Below, one piece after another: positions 2,913 to 46,187 of a DNA stretch of 48,970 nt (position 1 is its first letter; each line of letters begins with the position of its first letter). The notes under the pieces are model-generated. The model did no database searches. It was not told the DNA's origin and saw only the letters and a list, made by a program, of their open reading frames with translations. Source of the DNA: Minisyncoccota bacterium. GTDB lineage: Bacteria; Patescibacteriota; Minisyncoccia; Phycocordibacterales; UBA12079. The stretch is from assembly GCA_028689435.1 (NCBI GenBank), contig JAQTWD010000002.1, forward strand, positions 1 to 48,970, given 5' to 3'. Position numbers and translations under genes: made by a program.

Positions 2913-3320
2913 ATGAAAAAACATTTTTCAAAAATTTATTCTTTGGGTTTGTGGGGGATATTATCTATTCCTGTTTTAGCGAAAGCGTGGAGTCCTCTCA
3001 ACCCATCAATTTTGCCAAATTGTGCCAGAACACAGAGTGCTTCTCCGGATGGATGCCATTGGTCTGATTTAATAACATTAATGGATAACATTTTAGATGT
3101 CTTCATCTGGCTATCTATCCCAATCGCTACAATTTTGTTTGCATGGATCGGCTGGACACTGATAGTAGAAGGAAACAAATCAAGTGCTGTTTCAGCAGCA
3201 AAGGGAAGAATAATATCTTTGATAAAAGGAATGTTTTTTATTCTTGCATCGTGGCTTATCGTAAAAGTGATTGTGAGTATCTTGGCAAAACCAGAATATT
3301 ATCAAGACTTTTTAAATTAG
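2913..3320 (+). CDS. TrbC/VirB2-like (T4SS-pilin-like) small membrane protein
   Basis: Signal peptide, then two hydrophobic helices separated by a short charged loop (EGNKSSAVSAAKGR). Tandem paralogue of the next ORF. Family assignment is from memory of the CPR 'T4SS pilin' architecture. Confidence 0.45.
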   Translation: MKKHFSKIYSLGLWGILSIPVLAKAWSPLNPSILPNCARTQSASPDGCHWSDLITLMDNILDVFIWLSIPIATILFAWIGWTLIVEGNKSSAVSAAKGRIISLIKGMFFILASWLIVKVIVSILAKPEYYQDFLN

Positions 3321-4247: not shown

Positions 4248-5377
4248 GGTTTACCTCCTCTTATTTGAGCACCTGCGACAGAACCCTTGGTGAAATCTCC
4301 AGCATTACCGTCAACAGTGATGACGGTCCTTTTATTTCTTTCGGCCTGGATTATTTTAGCCCTTTCAGACCCGTCCATTTCTTTCCAAACCTTTTTCCCT
4401 TCTTCAAGATCTCCGCCCCCGAGAAGTATCCAAAACAATTCCTGCTGAATAGTTTCCGATTTGGTTTGGGCAATCTCAACGTCCCTTTCAGCATTAGCGT
4501 CAGTAATCTCCTTCGGGATGGCAACTTCTGTAACCATTGCCTTCTTGATTGTCAAGCCCCATTCTTGGGCCGTTTCTTTGATACCGCCGACATCAATTTT
4601 TGAAAAATCTTCTGTCGGGTCTTTGATTAAACCCAAGACCATTGCTTCTGCAACGACCCTGTCTGTATCGGTTGAAGTGTGATTAACAATTTTATCAAGG
4701 GTTGTCCCCTCCAGAAGTTCTGAAAAAAGTCCTTTCACTCCGGGAAGTTTAACAACCTCAACCATGTTGGCAAGCCAGCGGATGTTTCTGCCAATCAAGC
4801 CTTCGAGCGCCTTAACAGCATTATCCATTCTTAAATAAGCGTATGGATTGCTTATAAAAAATTGAATCAACGTATCAACGCTCGCCGTCTTGTTGTCAGA
4901 CGACAAAACCCCTTTAATTTCGGGATCCATCGTCTGCTCCTTCAAAGAAACCTCCACAAAATCCATAAAAGGCTTGGGAAGGATCCAGCTATAGCCACCC
5001 GGGAGTAAAAACAAATTCGATAAATCACCCAGTATCATCGGCACGCCGACATGCACAGGGGGAATCTCGCGAATCCCATTCCACCCGAAAACCATCAAGA
5101 TCGCCAGTGCTGCGAGCACCGAGGCAATGATGCCACGAATGGTGAAACCACCGGTGAAATTGGTGACGATAATAGTCGCCACGAAAATCAACCCCGCGTT
5201 GAAAGCAATACCCACCAAAAACGTGGTAAGCCTACTAATAGGCTTTTTTACCTTTGCCGGCTCCTGTGTAGGTGCCGGTATTGGTGTTGGCACAGTTGGT
5301 GCAGGTGTTGGTGGCGTAGGTGATGTAGACGAAGGTCGACTTATCAGACTCCATGCATTCTTCAAAAAATTTTTCAT
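4244..5377 (-). CDS. SPFH/band-7 (prohibitin/flotillin-like) membrane protein with a Pro/Thr-rich N-terminal linker
   Basis: AGGAGGAG SD lies before ATG 5377 (MKNFLKNAW). PTPPTPAPTVPTPIPAPT linker, TM segment, then an SPFH-like core and a C-terminal charged E/K/A-rich region (ERDVEIAQTKSETIQQE). G+C-rich relative to its flanks. Confidence 0.6.
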   Translation of the reverse strand: MKNFLKNAWSLISRPSSTSPTPPTPAPTVPTPIPAPTQEPAKVKKPISRLTTFLVGIAFNAGLIFVATIIVTNFTGGFTIRGIIASVLAALAILMVFGWNGIREIPPVHVGVPMILGDLSNLFLLPGGYSWILPKPFMDFVEVSLKEQTMDPEIKGVLSSDNKTASVDTLIQFFISNPYAYLRMDNAVKALEGLIGRNIRWLANMVEVVKLPGVKGLFSELLEGTTLDKIVNHTSTDTDRVVAEAMVLGLIKDPTEDFSKIDVGGIKETAQEWGLTIKKAMVTEVAIPKEITDANAERDVEIAQTKSETIQQELFWILLGGGDLEEGKKVWKEMDGSERAKIIQAERNKRTVITVDGNAGDFTKGSVAGAQIRGGKP

Positions 5378-16043: not shown

Positions 16044-16490
16044 TTAATTCCTAGGAACAATTTCTAAAATGAATTCAGCTGATTTTTTCCCAACCTTTAT
16101 GGTTATCTTGTGTTCCGATGCTTCTTTAATTGGTTTATCCAAAACAATATTATCTGGGTTTATTTCAATGGCCTTTTGATCCTTTATTGCATCTATAATA
16201 TCTCCTTTATCAATTCCAGCAAACAATTTTCCTTCATCATTTATCTTTGCTGAAATACTTACTCTTGAATCTTTTAATTTTTCGATACTTTCAATCAAAT
16301 CCAGCTCTTTCGTTTTTTGACTTTGTTCATGTTGCAATCTTTCTGACTCCAATTCTCTCAAAGCATTAACGGTTGCTACTTTTGCCAACTTGTTTGGAAT
16401 TAAAAAATTTAAAGCATAACCGTCGGAAACATCTTTTACTTCGTATTTTCTGCCTGTTTTTGCAACATTTTGTAATAATATAACTTTCAT
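16044..16490 (-). CDS. rplI: 50S ribosomal protein L9
   Basis: MKVILLQNV...GYALNFLIPNKLA N-terminal domain. 148 aa. Confidence 0.9.
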   Translation of the reverse strand: MKVILLQNVAKTGRKYEVKDVSDGYALNFLIPNKLAKVATVNALRELESERLQHEQSQKTKELDLIESIEKLKDSRVSISAKINDEGKLFAGIDKGDIIDAIKDQKAIEINPDNIVLDKPIKEASEHKITIKVGKKSAEFILEIVPRN

Positions 16491-17831: not shown

Positions 17832-17928
17832 CCCGTTAGAAATTTTAATATTTATAATGTCTTAATTTTTTAAAAGTTTAAATATTGTTTATATATATAA
17901 TTCCGTATGAATAAAAATCTCTAACGGG
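17832..17928 (-). mobile_element. TIR element copy B (97 bp) abutting the ctpA start codon
   Basis: Minus strand: CCCGTTAGAGAT...ATTTCTAACGGG, followed directly by ATG. Flanked by identical hexamers ACTCAT (17826-17831 and 17929-17934), which read ATGAGT on the gene strand. Confidence 0.7.
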
Positions 17929-32274: not shown

Positions 32275-32287
32275 ATCTGCAATGAAT

Positions 32288-32406
32288 CCCGTTAGAGATA
32301 ACGGATGAAAAAAAGAGACACTAGCCGAAAGTGATTTATCAATTAAATTATATAAAGATCAGAGGCACGACTTATATATAAAAGTCCGTGTTCTATCTCT
32401 AACGGG
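32288..32406 (+). mobile_element. TIR element copy A (119 bp) abutting the lepB start codon
   Basis: CCCGTTAGAGATA (32288-32300) is the exact inverted repeat of TATCTCTAACGGG (32394-32406). Flanked by ATGAAT at 32282-32287 and ATGAAT at 32407-32412 (the lepB start). Confidence 0.75.
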
Positions 32407-32955
32407 ATGAATAATTCTAATGAAAACTTTTTTGTAGAAGTCTTAAAGTTCTCACTACTTACTTTAATTGTTGTGCTTCCTTTCAGGATGTACATCGCAA
32501 AACCATTTATTGTTGATGGTGCATCGATGAGTCCGACATTTGAAACAGGTCACTACCTCATTGTTGATGAAATCTCGTACAGAATAGAAAATCCTCAAAG
32601 GGGCGAAGTGATAATTTTCAAATATCCGAAAGATCCAAGTCGTTTCTTTATAAAAAGAATTATCGGATTACCAAACGAAACCGTTGAAATAATAAATGGA
32701 AAAGTAACAATCTACAACGAAGAAACGCCTAATGGAGTACATTTAGAAGAAAATTATGTTGAAAAAACATCTCGGGAAAATATAAAGGTTAAATTGGGAG
32801 AAAATGAGTATTTTGTTATGGGAGATAACCGAGGAAATAGCTCTGATTCAAGGTTTTGGGGAGCATTACCAAAAGACATGATTATTGGAAAAGCATTTTT
32901 ACGACTTTTGCCCATTACCAAAATAGATGTATTGCCCGGAAATTTTGATTATTAA
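32407..32955 (+). CDS. lepB: signal peptidase I
   Basis: DGASMSPT (catalytic Ser), KRIIGLPNE (catalytic Lys), GDNRGNSSDSR. Confidence 0.9.
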   Translation: MNNSNENFFVEVLKFSLLTLIVVLPFRMYIAKPFIVDGASMSPTFETGHYLIVDEISYRIENPQRGEVIIFKYPKDPSRFFIKRIIGLPNETVEIINGKVTIYNEETPNGVHLEENYVEKTSRENIKVKLGENEYFVMGDNRGNSSDSRFWGALPKDMIIGKAFLRLLPITKIDVLPGNFDY

Positions 32956-43518: not shown

Positions 43519-43997
43519 AAAATCTCTCCTCCTTCTTGTCGATGTTTTGTATTTAAAAAGACATTTTTTCTACAATATAAAATACCATACAAAAAACACT
43601 TCCGTCAATATAAGACTTCAAAATTTACCAAAATCTTGCTTCTGTAGATTTTGAAATAATACATACACAAAAACAAAAATCCTCTCAATTGAGAGGATTT
43701 TTGTTTTTGTGTAGGCTTGTGTCTAACAAGCCAATAAATTTTAATGTCTATTTTTTTCTGCCTGAAAAAATATAAACATATCGTACTGTTTCCATATAAA
43801 AGAATATAACATTTTTTAAAAAAAGAAATGTGTATAACCGAGGTAAACATACTAATATACGAATGACACTAATAATACGAATACTATACAAATGTTGTAA
43901 TTTCGTATTCGTATTGCATTAGTATAATTCGTATCATTTGTATATTGGTATGTCTATCTTAAAATTTAAAAAAATGTATGATATTAACATCATGATT

Positions 43998-44112
43998 CCC
44001 GTTAGAGATCGCGGACACTTGCGGGGAATATTTAACAAAAGAAATTTATTAGAATTAATTTAAATAGATAGTATGCGAGATTTAACAAAGTCCGCGTCCT
44101 ATCTCTAACGGG
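43998..44112 (+). mobile_element. TIR element copy C (115 bp) abutting the tsaD start codon
   Basis: CCCGTTAGAGAT (43998-44009) pairs with ATCTCTAACGGG (44101-44112). Inner helix CGCGGAC/GTCCGCG. Flanks are ATGATT (43992-43997) and ATGAAA (44113-44118). Confidence 0.7.
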
Positions 44113-45348
44113 ATGAAAATATTGGCAATTGAGACATCTTGCGACGAGACAGCAATCAGCATAATTGAAGCAAAAGGAGGACTTAAAAAACCTCAATTCA
44201 AAATCTTGGCTGACACAGTTATCTCTCAAATAAATATCCACAAAGAATATGGAGGTGTCTTCCCCGCTCTTGCAAAAAGAGAACACGTAAAGAACTTACT
44301 TCCGATATTAGGGGAAACTTTGAAGAAAGCGAAGATGCTATCATTTGAAAAAAATCACAAAACACAAATTACAAATTACAAACAAAACACAAAATACAAA
44401 ACACAAATTACAAAAATCAAAAAAATTTTAGAAAGAGAGGTTGAAATGGTTGAGCCTTTGTTAGATTTTTTAAAAAATAACAAAATACCAAAAATAGATG
44501 CAATCGCTGTGACACAGGGGCCAGGACTAGAGCCTGCTCTTTGGACAGGAATAAATTTTGCAAAGGCTTTGGCGTTGGCGTGGGACAAACCTTTTATTCC
44601 TGTTAATCATATGGAAGGACACCTCGTCGCTTCGCTCCTCAAGTTAAAAGTAACAAGTAGCAAGTATAAAGGAGTTGAGTTTCCTGCTCTTGGTTTATTG
44701 ATAAGCGGAGGTCATACAGAGTTAATAATGGTTAAAGATTGGATGGATTATAAATTGATCGGTCAAACCAGAGACGATGCTGTCGGAGAAGCTTATGACA
44801 AGGTAGCAAGAATGCTTGGCCTTCCCTACCCAGGTGGTCCTGAAATATCAAAACTCTCCGAAGAATTTTCTAAAAACTACTCACTACCCACTACTCACTA
44901 CCCACTACCCCGTCCAATGCTTCATACAAACGATTTTGATTTTTCTTTTTCCGGATTAAAAACGGCTGTTTTGTATACCGTTAAAAATATTAAAAACCAT
45001 GCCTACCGGCAGGCAGGAATGACACCCGAAATCAAAAAAGAAATTTGTGCAGAATTTGAAAATGCGGTTGTTGATGTTTTGCTTTTTAAAACGAAAAAGG
45101 CTGTTGCAAAAAATAATATAAAGACATTGATTTTGGGAGGTGGTGTAACCGCAAATAAAAAAATACGAAAAGAATTTAAAAAATTGGAAAAAGAATTAGG
45201 TATTGATGTTTTAGTACCAGATGCAAAACATTCTACCGACAATGCTGTGATGATAGGAATTGCAGGTTATTTTAGATATTTAGATAACAAGGTTCTACTA
45301 CCAAACAAAACAGCAAAGATCAGAGCAGAAGGAAATTTGGCATTATAA
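44113..45348 (+). CDS. tsaD: tRNA N6-adenosine threonylcarbamoyltransferase TsaD, with four in-frame low-complexity insertions
   Basis: IETSCDET, HMEGH, SGGHT, GLPYPGGP and FSFSGLKT motifs. 411 aa versus about 340 aa typical. Confidence 0.9.
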   Translation: MKILAIETSCDETAISIIEAKGGLKKPQFKILADTVISQINIHKEYGGVFPALAKREHVKNLLPILGETLKKAKMLSFEKNHKTQITNYKQNTKYKTQITKIKKILEREVEMVEPLLDFLKNNKIPKIDAIAVTQGPGLEPALWTGINFAKALALAWDKPFIPVNHMEGHLVASLLKLKVTSSKYKGVEFPALGLLISGGHTELIMVKDWMDYKLIGQTRDDAVGEAYDKVARMLGLPYPGGPEISKLSEEFSKNYSLPTTHYPLPRPMLHTNDFDFSFSGLKTAVLYTVKNIKNHAYRQAGMTPEIKKEICAEFENAVVDVLLFKTKKAVAKNNIKTLILGGGVTANKKIRKEFKKLEKELGIDVLVPDAKHSTDNAVMIGIAGYFRYLDNKVLLPNKTAKIRAEGNLAL

Positions 45349-45606: not shown

Positions 45607-45772
45607 GTTTTGTTTCCTTTTCTAGAATTATTAAAATAAACAAATACCTTCAACAAGATTACGCAAAATTTTCTTTTATGTCAATTAAATCTGAGACAAA
45701 TCTAAGTTTTTTAATATTTGTATCGCATTCGTATAATTCGCAAAATTCGTATATTTGTATGTCTATTTTTGC

Positions 45773-45800
45773 TTGACAAAAAATGACTGCTTGCTACAAT
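45773..45800 (+). promoter_or_regulatory. near-consensus promoter of a candidate small RNA
   Basis: TTGACA, 16-nt spacer, TACAAT. Confidence 0.55.
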
Positions 45801-45931: not shown

Positions 45932-46187
45932 ATTGCATTATTATATATTTTAAAAATCTCATACCATCATTTTGCAAAATGACGGTATGAGATTTTTGTA
46001 CAAAAAGTTATTTAACAACTTCTACCTCAATAGCCACTACACCAAAACTTTTTTCATCTTTTGGTTTTGTAATTTGTTTTTTGTGATTTGTTTGGAATTT
46101 GTGTTTTGTGATTTTTGTTTGTATTTTTATCAGCCGTTAATATTTCTGCTTTTCTGAGAACAATTATTAATACAGGAAGCAAATTTT

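Follow-up and report, generated by a model that had tools for sequence, protein, structure and literature searches.

In the 48,970-nucleotide stretch of DNA analyzed here (hereafter the window), the gene encoding TsaD (44113..45348, plus strand; 411 aa; Pfam PF00814, E=1.8e-82) starts right after a pair of perfect 12-nt inverted repeats, CCCGTTAGAGAT (43998-44009) and ATCTCTAACGGG (44101-44112), and the question raised by this locus is what such a structure is and how it came to end exactly where a housekeeping gene begins. A preliminary description had placed the repeats at these positions, with the tsaD ATG at 44113 and the flanks ATGATT (43992-43997) and ATGAAA (44113-44118), and had favored a mobile element with terminal inverted repeats, inserted at start codons, over a pathway-specific riboswitch. 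Coordinates and flanks were both exact, and this principal reading is supported by our analysis, based on an empty site at lepB, on 4-bp duplications that vary from copy to copy, and on the hundreds of further copies found beyond the window at unrelated genes across many phyla; the leader module that had been offered as an alternative is not needed. More specifically, we consider it probable that the tsaD feature is a gene-less and decayed MITE-like copy of a group of small mobile elements that carry a GIY-YIG nuclease gene and insert at gene starts, rebuilding the start codon.

Based on sequence inspection, the tsaD element measures 117 bp when its terminal pair is included (43997-44113, plus strand, as are all the features of this locus). 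Upstream of it, a TG-extended -10-like box with a putative promoter role, TGTATGATATT, is found at 43975..43985, where TATGAT and GATATT precede, by 9 and 6 nt respectively, a stranded ATG (43992-43994) that corresponds to the original start codon. This ATG opens a 23-codon frame that runs through the 5' arm (MIPVRDRGHLRGIFNKRNLLELI; 43992..44063, stop 44061-44063), and overlaps the left target duplication, TGAT (43993..43996), here assigned according to the 4-bp register seen family-wide. The 5' terminal inverted repeat (43997..44009) is composed of a terminal T (43997) and CCCGTTAGAGAT, and is followed by the 5' half of an inner helix, CGCGGAC (44010..44016), recognized by sequence, folding, and covariation. 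The 3' half of the helix, GTCCGCG (44090-44096), and the TCCT that follows it (44097-44100) together occupy positions 44090..44100. Inside the element, a frame of 11 codons reading M R D L T K S A S Y L * (44073..44108) terminates at a conserved TAA (44106-44108) of the 3' arm, and its final codons, ..A S Y L *, match those at the C-terminal end of the nuclease, ..G A S Y L *; at the nucleotide level, GCGTCCTATCTCTAACGGG of the tsaD copy corresponds to GCTTCCTATCTCTAACGGG of intact elements. The TCCT previously described as a bulge is thus present, but is better read as part of the remnant Ser-Tyr codons of the nuclease ORF (..GCG TCC TAT CTC TAA). The 3' terminal inverted repeat (44101..44113) consists of ATCTCTAACGGG and a terminal A (44113), which is also the first base of the tsaD ATG, and is followed by the right target duplication, TGAA (44114..44117), with one mismatch compared to the left TGAT. 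The earlier guess of a 4-bp duplication therefore holds, once the arms are extended by the terminal pair T 43997/A 44113. The canonical TsaD N-terminus, MKILAIETSCDE, begins at the proximal ATG, and no database record was found for the exact TsaD protein of the window.

That the tsaD feature is the third copy of its kind in the window was also correct, as the two others could be located at lepB and ctp. At lepB (plus strand), the stranded ATG is found at 32282-32284, the TGAA duplications at 32283-32286 and 32408-32411, and the element at 32287-32407, with arms at 32288-32299/32395-32406 and an arm-to-arm span of 32288-32406. At ctp (minus strand), the stranded ATG is at 17934-17932, the TGAG duplications at 17933-17930 and 17830-17827, and the element at 17929-17831, with an arm-to-arm span of 17832-17928. 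No mismatch interrupts the 12-nt arms of the tsaD and lepB copies, while the 3' arm of the ctp copy carries one C-to-T change that results in a G-U pair on the gene-sense strand. Pfam identifies the hosts as TsaD, an S26 signal peptidase, and an S41 Ctp, in agreement with the proposal that they are unrelated housekeeping genes, and the duplications differ among them (TGAT/TGAA, TGAA/TGAA, and TGAG/TGAG, respectively). The copies measure 97-119 bp between arm ends, and their coding content is limited to frames of 8-23 codons. Such a two-arm pattern is matched three times in the window, versus 0.00 times expected based on 100 shuffles; copies are found at 3 of about 40 genes, and no extra copies or solo arms were seen in the window at one mismatch or less. 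Predicted folding energies for the three copies were -40.9, -37.2, and -26.4 kcal/mol (z = -5.5, -5.7, and -5.5 versus shuffled sequences). The inner helix of the tsaD copy, CGCGGAC/GTCCGCG, is a compensatory variant of that of lepB, as previously suggested, with a G-C to A-U replacement between the two copies, and across the subfamily both sides are altered in 5/9 pairs; the sequences for this comparison, however, were chosen by a rule that favors pairing, and covariation would fit an RNA or a DNA fold alike. An excess of wobble pairs was seen as well but is confounded by the same selection rule, and the asymmetry between G-U and A-C pairs in mixed arms (2 vs 1 cases with host) involves too few cases to separate RNA from DNA folding.

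Comparison with orthologous loci supports insertion. LepB orthologues 88-90% identical to that of the window (loci L245 and L246) lack the element, and their identical promoter leads straight into ATGAATAATTCT: the empty loci read ...tgctaagatatctgcaATGAATAATTCT, where the window reads ...ctgcaATGAAT, followed by the element and then by ATGAATAATTCT. In the case of tsaD, the three closest orthologues (84-87% identical) are without the element, while more distant ones (74-77% identical) bear a homologous copy of 184 bp at the same codon, the interior of which aligns with that of the window copy.

To define the family beyond the window, we analyzed approximately 125 short copies from many phyla, using 124 of them to count end pairs and duplications, with taxon labels being those of the metagenome bins. 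The arm sequence is identical across several phyla, and the carriers include Patescibacteria, Omnitrophota, and Planctomycetota; in the viral contig collection, neither the short nor the full-length class had any match. The terminal pair covaries, being T..A in 67 copies, C..G in 52, and other in 5, and just outside of it a perfect 4-bp repeat is present in 74/124 copies, compared to 11 expected, which leaves about 40% of copies without a perfect duplication. The duplicated sequences vary (TGAA/TTCA in 34 copies, TAAA/TTTA in 9, and TGGA/TCCA in 9), and a recurrent upstream flank, (A/G)CTTG(T/C), occurs without any matching repeat. In 70/125 short copies (56%), a host ORF of at least 60 aa starts exactly at the base after ..AACGGG, as the last base of the element, A or G, and the duplicated TG together rebuild an ATG or GTG start codon. 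The first base of the host start tracks the terminal base of the element, in fact, and C..G elements yield ATGAAC[..]GTGAAx. Among start-abutting copies, short and full-length combined (n=122), the stranded A, T, and G are found at -6, -5, and -4 in 71-84% of cases, and the upstream ATG is missing from about 16-29% of copies at gene starts. Short copies at host starts are co-oriented with the gene in 24 cases and oppositely oriented in 6. Some insertions fall within -35-like TTGACA boxes, and others follow stop codons or lie at the 5' ends of tRNAs, and at one locus (L013) the downstream codon is GCG, which is not a start codon. Insertion could, as a hypothesis, target the start of transcription, even though the distance of the -10 box to non-ATG sites (GTAAA class) did not appear constant by eye.

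The same 13-bp inverted termini, (T/C)CCCGTTAGA(G/A)AT, bound full-length elements of ~277 bp whose sole gene encodes a stand-alone GIY-YIG nuclease (UPF0213-type) of 83-87 aa. More than 120 metagenome matches with these arms measured 269-289 bp, save one of 260 bp, and 110/121 full-length matches were homologous to the profile of the intact ORF. The 25 ORFs of at least 83 aa begin 14-22 nt into the element, and 24 of them stop at the 3'-arm TAA, at 4 nt from where the element ends and 4 nt before the host ATG, while the remaining one (L182) ends 9 nt earlier. The protein matches GIY-YIG PF01541 (E=3.6e-16) as well as PHROG homing-endonuclease families, its nearest solved structure is UPF0213 BH0048, and the 84-aa form has no separate DNA-binding domain. 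Residues Y6, Y17, G19, R27, H31, E51, and N77 (the catalytic Y, Y-x-G, R, H, E, and N) are invariant, and the arms stay identical while identity to the reference protein falls to about 51-58%. Approached from the opposite direction, both nuclease genes drawn from a list of homologues were flanked by the arms and lay 4 nt before a host ATG. Full-length copies abutting host starts are co-oriented with the gene 46 to 1. Variants of 92 aa begin with M-[D/N]-PVRD, a sequence produced by reading in frame from the stranded ATG through the 5' arm. Some nuclease genes carry the misnomer "excinuclease ABC subunit C". Across 1.65 Mb of fetched loci, the spacing of arm pairs defines two size classes, of ~60-140 bp and ~260-300 bp, and no class of 1-2 kb with these arms was found there; a few larger spacings exist, and the one inspected (L002) is due to a second element nested inside the first.

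The window copies resemble MITEs in that they are non-coding and shorter than ~500 bp, with terminal inverted repeats, a duplication of fixed length and variable sequence, and an empty site, and the longer coding partner expected for a MITE may be represented by the ~277-bp elements, which share their arms and encode a nuclease that would be the candidate for mobilizing them. Because a comparison of short-copy interiors to the full-length profile using nhmmer returned no significant match, the origin of short copies by deletion is argued from the arms, from approximately 7 subterminal nucleotides, and from the 184-bp tsaD intermediate. A tblastn search with the nucleases against this 184-bp copy and the window copies gave weak matches (E about 0.03-0.1, in tiny databases).

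Based on these data, we propose that insertion duplicates 4 bp (sometimes 5) of a target with a TNNA-like preference, and that in most surviving copies the duplication spans the TGnn of a gene's ATGnn. The 3'-terminal A (or G) of the element then restores an ATG (or GTG) flush with its 3' end, and the original ATG is left stranded beside the promoter. Expression of the nuclease gene seems to depend on this stranded promoter and ATG, to which the gene is fused in frame in some copies, as M-x-PVRD..., and because the TAA in the 3' arm lies 4 nt before the host ATG, terminating ribosomes could restart on the host gene. The tsaD copy has lost the ORF but keeps the arms, the final codons (..ASYL*), and the inner inverted repeat, and it would presumably form a hairpin at the 5' end of a transcript shared with tsaD. 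Ribosomes translating the 23-codon frame from the stranded AUG would unwind the long stem, and tsaD itself would be read from the rebuilt AUG.

How these genes are expressed can be partly addressed from the sequence. The TG-extended -10 region noted earlier upstream of tsaD is present at 43975-43985, but the promoter scan makes no call on it, as the scan requires a -35 box. A -10-like TANNNT is located 4-11 nt upstream of the ATG in 11/25 window genes and a Shine-Dalgarno core is seen in only 3/25, and the promoters at these sites may be leaderless. No TAnnnT box at a distance suitable for an outward promoter could be seen by eye in the 3' arm. The frame opened by the stranded ATG stays open to the TAA of the arm in 12/51 short copies, compared to 2.9 +/- 1.5 expected (0/2000 shuffles reached 12). 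The RNA hairpin is predicted to form, and translational coupling or unmasking may occur. In none of the three window copies, however, is this frame open to the arm, with stops located 49, 101, and 52 nt before the element end, and coupling cannot directly explain the expression of their hosts.

Terminal inverted repeats accompanied by a target duplication of fixed length are the hallmark of DDE transposition, and their presence here could indicate classical MITEs that depend for their mobility on an ordinary transposase acting in trans (such as a DDE enzyme of a family generating a 4-5-bp duplication), with the GIY-YIG gene being a passenger or an invading homing-endonuclease gene. Such an explanation would also agree with the fact that strand transfer by GIY-YIG nucleases is not known, that short-copy interiors lack detectable homology to the ORF, and that the 49-kb window holds three short copies but no GIY-YIG gene. 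We regard it as unlikely, nonetheless, since a transposase-sized class of 1-2 kb is missing from the 1.65 Mb of loci, where the arms define two size classes only, and since the nuclease ORF is packed into the arms, with its start 14-22 nt in and its stop inside the 3' arm. Furthermore, the arms have remained unchanged despite divergence of the protein to about 51-58% identity, and were found on 2/2 nuclease genes picked from the homologue list.

Several features could speak for a conserved, cis-acting RNA leader that selection maintains before start codons (for instance a thermosensor, a hairpin that loads ribosomes, or a site for processing by RNase III), in which case the direct repeats would reflect a functional need: the predicted hairpins are very stable (z about -5.5), the arms are identical across phyla and lie at a fixed position with respect to the AUG, orientation is biased, and the inner helix covaries. 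We consider such a leader very improbable, however, as close relatives have the same promoter and gene but no element, the flanking repeats vary gene by gene, insertions are not restricted to start codons (being found also in TTGACA boxes, behind stop codons, and at the 5' ends of tRNAs), and longer versions code for a protein; in addition, the structure matches no Rfam family (the best score being 26 bits versus a threshold of 85). Slightly less credible still is that the upstream ATG is the real start, with the element being eliminated from the RNA through intron-like splicing, or jumped over by ribosomes in a translational bypass between the two AUGs. The matched take-off and landing sites, ATGnn...ATGnn, do resemble those of bypass elements, and the GCG downstream of the L013 copy is not a start codon, but the ATG-ATG distances (103, 125, and 121 nt) include no multiple of 3 and removal is not required, the canonical N-terminus of TsaD begins at the proximal ATG, about 16-29% of gene-start copies have no upstream ATG, the landing codon becomes GTG in C..G elements, and neither a ribozyme core nor an Rfam match was found. 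Insertion of a mobile element accounts better for these loci.

Several known classes were also considered and rejected. An insertion sequence with a DDE, HUH, Ser, or Tyr transposase does not fit, as the only ORF is a GIY-YIG one by Pfam and no 1-2-kb class was found in the 1.65 Mb of loci. A GIY-YIG homing endonuclease gene agrees in its catalytic domain, but in place of a single long homing site we see many unrelated sites, 4-bp duplications, and 13-bp inverted termini. An Rfam scan of the window at the gathering threshold returned only four tRNAs, and at a permissive threshold added only a generic plant miRNA hairpin (26 of 85 bits); a riboswitch or curated RNA leader was rejected because no Rfam model matches and because TsaD, LepB, and Ctp belong to no single pathway. 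Integron attC sites, which form arrays beside intI, carry R'' (RYYYAAC) on the 5' side and R' (GTTRRRY) on the 3' side, while here the GTTAGAG-like box is 5' and CTCTAAC is 3', in reverse order, and copies are dispersed singly at housekeeping genes. A self-splicing intron or bypass element was likewise rejected, due to the lack of an Rfam intron match and to a protein that starts at the proximal ATG.

Tentatively, and with more doubt than conviction, we further propose that the ~277-bp elements could be an unrecognized class of autonomous mobile elements, and the smallest one, where a lone 84-aa GIY-YIG nuclease takes the place of a transposase, acts on its own 13-bp termini, targets transcript starts, captures the promoter and start of the host, and spares the host by means of a rebuilt start and stop-restart translation, with gene-less derivatives residing at several per cent of Patescibacteria gene starts. 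GIY-YIG enzymes cleave DNA by hydrolysis, and none is known to function as a transposase. If the nuclease truly moves the element, this would be a new enzyme class among transposition machineries, and the lower size limit for an autonomous element would become 277 bp, compared to about 700 bp for IS200. Full-text searches with the arm sequence (which retrieved only unrelated primers) and concept searches found no description of this family in a literature whose coverage was incomplete. The identical arms seen across phyla indicate gene exchange of Patescibacteria with other lineages from groundwater, in agreement with a separate study in which genes reported as donated by Patescibacteria include GIY-YIG ones (PMC12455944). 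There would also be consequences for annotation in uncultivated bacteria, where many genes would carry a stranded upstream ATG and a hairpin of ~100 nt, sometimes with a change of ATG to GTG. These copies could also serve as a natural series of constructs to study initiation on leaderless mRNAs and at AUGs that are adjacent to a hairpin and lack a Shine-Dalgarno sequence.

Among known systems, the closest in appearance are bacterial MITEs co-transcribed with neighboring genes, such as Correia/NEMIS of Neisseria, ERIC/IRU of enterobacteria, and RUP of pneumococci. Like these, the elements described here are 100-150 bp long, with inverted ends, a short duplication, many gene-adjacent copies, and a strong hairpin predicted in the 5' mRNA. 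Their arms are unrelated, however, the duplication is of 4 bp rather than TA, and the arms are identical across several phyla rather than confined to one genus. Furthermore, more than half of the copies end on the first base of a start codon, which they themselves contribute, and the coding partner is a 277-bp GIY-YIG element instead of an insertion sequence with a DDE transposase. On the protein side, the nuclease shares its catalytic domain with I-TevI, T4 Seg, and UPF0213/YhbQ-type proteins (PDB 1zg2, 1ywl), and resembles GIY-YIG homing genes in being a selfish gene of small size that spreads inside genomes and from one genome to another. Unlike I-TevI and Seg, however, it totals 83-87 aa, without a DNA-binding extension, and unlike homing genes it has no single long homing site, hits many unrelated genes, and has at its borders inverted repeats and variable 4-bp duplications, which homing does not generate. 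GIY-YIG ORFs have been reported in the rRNA genes of CPR bacteria, within insertions unlike either group I or group II introns (J Bacteriol 2024, PMC11270868); the text of that paper contains no occurrence of inverted repeats or hairpins, and no target duplications, short derivatives, or start codons of protein genes. Those rRNA-gene insertions may belong to the same family as the elements described here.

Tolerance of small repeats in compact genomes, with reading frames or start and stop codons being preserved, is also seen with the palindromic elements of Rickettsia and with mycobacterial MIRUs, which are inserted in frame within genes or overlap the stop and start codons between them. Here, differently from both, the start codon is remade from a terminal base and the duplication, and a coding partner exists. 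In eukaryotes, introner transposons recreate a splice site from the element end and the target duplication, and although they belong to another domain of life and involve another signal and another enzyme, they provide an analogy, and no more than that, for how an end and a duplication can restore a signal that the host needs, in this case the start codon, and render the insertion harmless.

The structure upstream of tsaD is real, and its interpretation as a mobile element is correct, the tsaD copy being an ordinary decayed MITE. Its 5' arm CCCGTTAGAGAT (43998-44009, forward strand) and 3' arm, the exact reverse complement (44101-44112, same strand), are, as the preliminary description had it, perfect 12-bp repeats with the ATG of tsaD (a 411-aa ORF by ORF call and Pfam, forward strand) flush at 44113, and the flanks do read ATGATT upstream and ATGAAA downstream. 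When the terminal pair is added to the arms, as in the family-wide register, the element spans 43997-44113 (forward strand), and the 4-bp duplication guessed at earlier becomes TGAT/TGAA with one mismatch, versus two in the 6-bp reading of the same flanks. The TG-extended -10 motif was likewise found, as TGTATGATATT at 43975-43985 (forward strand), and Pfam identified TsaD, an S26 signal peptidase and an S41 C-terminal peptidase as the three unrelated housekeeping hosts. In the window the two-arm pattern occurs three times versus none in 100 shuffles, with no further copies or solo arms, and the predicted fold of each copy is far stabler than that of shuffled sequence (z about -5.5).

Preferring a mobile element to a riboswitch also proved right, as the lepB site is empty in relatives. 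In loci L245 and L246, whose LepB orthologues are 88-90% identical, the upstream region matches the window base for base to ...tgctaagatatctgca and then runs directly into ATGAATAATTCT with no element, whereas the window reads ATGAAT-element-ATGAATAATTCT; judging from this alignment, the element is an insertion. At tsaD, the three closest orthologues (84-87% identical) are without the element, and in those at 74-77% identity the same codon carries a copy of 184 bp (ATGAAT..ATGAAG), the 3' half of which aligns with the window copy, indicating that the latter descends, in shortened form, from a longer insertion.

The search of related MAGs proposed in the preliminary description yielded many copies across phyla. 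Our scan of species-representative genomes, which demanded both arms exact with a 70-100-nt gap and hence provides no measure of arm divergence, returned at least 119 stretches. The short copies listed come from many Patescibacteria classes, Omnitrophota, Planctomycetota, Elusimicrobia, Nitrospirae and proteobacteria (MAG labels, from metagenome bins), and because element interiors follow the composition of the host contig, as in the GC-rich locus L003, spread across phyla is credible in spite of the bin-derived labels. In about 125 listed copies a terminal covarying pair extends the arms (T..A in 67, C..G in 52, other in 5), and arm position 10 covaries as well (AGAGAT/ATCTCT vs AGAAAT/ATTTCT). 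Directly outside this pair lies a perfect 4-bp direct repeat in 74 of 124 listed copies (shuffled pairing predicts 11), with a variable, TNNA-like consensus (TGAA/TTCA 34, TAAA/TTTA 9, TGGA/TCCA 9). In 70 of 125 listed copies an ORF of 60 aa or more begins exactly at the base that follows ..AACGGG. Copies with the C..G pair read ATGAAC[element]GTGAAx: the host start codon thus opens with the last base of the element and takes its TG from the duplication.

Full-length copies carry a nuclease gene. A 276-bp copy in Parcubacteria RAAC4 (L064 3889-4164) contains an 84-aa ORF assigned to Pfam GIY-YIG (E=3.6e-16), with UPF0213 proteins as nearest solved relatives. Scanning metagenomes for arms 235-265 nt apart retrieved at least 120 stretches, those listed being 269-289 bp long save one of 260 bp; 110 of 121 listed full-length copies are homologous to the intact-ORF profile, and 25 hold ORFs of 83 aa or longer, the remainder being frameshifted. 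Intact ORFs begin 14-22 nt inside the element and, in 24 of 25 cases, end at a TAA within the 3' arm, 4 nt from the element end. An 84-aa hydrolytic nuclease is no obvious transposase, and a transposase acting in trans might move the element, with the nuclease as passenger, a scenario we consider unlikely. Protein identity to the reference is 51-58%, yet the catalytic residues are invariant and the arms unchanged, and both of two nuclease genes picked from the homologue list were arm-flanked and ended 4 nt before the host ATG. Across 1.65 Mb of loci no arm-bounded size class exceeding ~300 bp turned up, and no copies were found among 2.9 million viral contigs. Other small, more distant GIY-YIG ORFs (L001 4454-4645, L008 2229-2462) are flanked by different repeats (GGATGAGCTATGGGCCC.. 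and ..GAGCTACTGCGGAAT.., respectively), and may belong to related families of mini nuclease elements whose termini differ.

The inner helix CGCGGAC/GTCCGCG of the tsaD copy is followed by TCCT as first described, but this is not a plain bulge: the copy ends in GCG TCC TAT CTC TAA (..ASYL*) versus GCT TCC TAT CTC TAA in intact elements, and by this alignment TCCT and the preceding bases are the C-terminal codons of the nuclease gene. The proposed compensatory difference from the lepB copy holds, a G-C to A-U change among pairs altered on both sides. The helix belongs to a subfamily common in Saccharibacteria, in which 5 of 9 pairs differ on both sides among 16 members, with a covariation score that none of 500 shuffles reached; since pairing was required in selecting members and a DNA inverted repeat predicts the same pattern, such covariation does not show RNA function.

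Full-length copies abutting a start codon are oriented like the host gene by 46 to 1 among the matches listed, and orientable short copies by 24 to 6. Some nuclease proteins are 92 aa long with the N-terminus M-[D/N]-PVRD, which is the stranded host ATG, left upstream of the element, read in frame through the 5' arm (CCC GTT AGA GAT). In 12 of the 51 short copies having a stranded ATG, that frame is open as far as the arm TAA (2.9 +/- 1.5 expected; 12 reached in 0 of 2000 shuffles). Orientation bias, captured ATG and open frames fit expression of the element gene from the host's promoter and first codon, with ribosomes then passed to the host gene by stop-restart at the element end. Of 25 ATG-start window genes, only 3 carry an SD core at 3-12 nt upstream and 11 a TANNNT -10-like box at 4-11 nt ahead of the ATG. 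This suggests that initiation in the window is widely leaderless or SD-independent and makes leaderless transcription from the stranded ATG plausible. Similar 36-39-residue peptides (MNPVRNRG...RIGFGR...ASASYF*), ending at the arm TAA, are encoded by this frame in short copies from Saccharibacteria-labelled MAGs (L020, L043, L050, L114, L094); they could be a conserved micro-ORF, or merely reflect recent common ancestry. At tsaD the frame opened by the stranded ATG has 23 codons and ends 52 nt short of the element end, so stop-restart coupling is lost in this copy; translation of this frame would unwind the long stem and make the rebuilt AUG accessible. Alternatively, the stem might be processed by RNase III, as that of Neisseria Correia elements is.

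Copies could sit at start codons through genuine targeting, for instance of melted DNA in open promoter complexes, or through a weak bias toward TNNA on which strong selection then acted in very compact genomes. Other sites show the same "harmless insertion" logic. Five copies (L046 3954-4052, L192, L203, L237, L089) lie within a TTGACA -35-like box, with duplication TTGA and C..G termini, and the box is rebuilt downstream (TTGACA-N16-TATACT in L046); two others overlap the 5' end of tRNA genes, namely L011 1916-2019 with tRNA-Leu (2018-2102) by 2 nt and L090 5090-5189 with tRNA-Pro (5186-5263) by 4 nt, the terminal ..CGGG forming the start of the acceptor stem. An upstream flank (A/G)CTTG(T/C) recurs without matching direct repeat in L083, L084 (5102), L017, L031, L091, L021, L034, L055, L060, L108, L136, L144, L183 and L219, the last two having inverted flanks (ACTTGC..GCAAGG), and could mark an extended-terminus subfamily or a recombination product. 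In two Lloydbacteria-like genomes, L005 2394-2516 and L096 4711-4828 occupy the same start codon of apparently orthologous genes (MEIRNIAIIA...) with oppositely oriented interiors, which points to inversion between the arms or independent insertions.

Other repeats lie near tsaD. A ~67-nt ACAAA-rich repeat (44350-44416), in frame within tsaD and encoding ..KNHKTQITNYKQNTKYKTQITKIKK.., has a 79% complementary inverted counterpart in the intergenic region ~1.6 kb downstream (46050-46116), and possibly represents a second family of small repeats that is tolerated within coding sequence. A 76-nt promoter-region module with ..attcgtat.. repeats and a (T/C)GTATAAT box occurs at 43901-43976 and 45710-45785 (76% identity), with similar motifs upstream of genes 16044-16490 (minus strand) and 2913-3320; a common promoter or operator cassette is one possibility. 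A perfect 25+25-nt palindrome (43664-43713), called terminator-like on the minus strand, separates the DUF5680 gene from the tsaD promoter region.

In an incomplete literature search we found no published description of this family, which appears unusual and is possibly undescribed. Two publications come near it. A survey of rRNA insertions in the CPR reported GIY-YIG ORFs within non-intron insertions, unlike homing elements in behaviour, with no mention of inverted repeats (PMC11270868), and a study of horizontal transfer placed GIY-YIG genes among the exports of Patescibacteria (PMC12455944).
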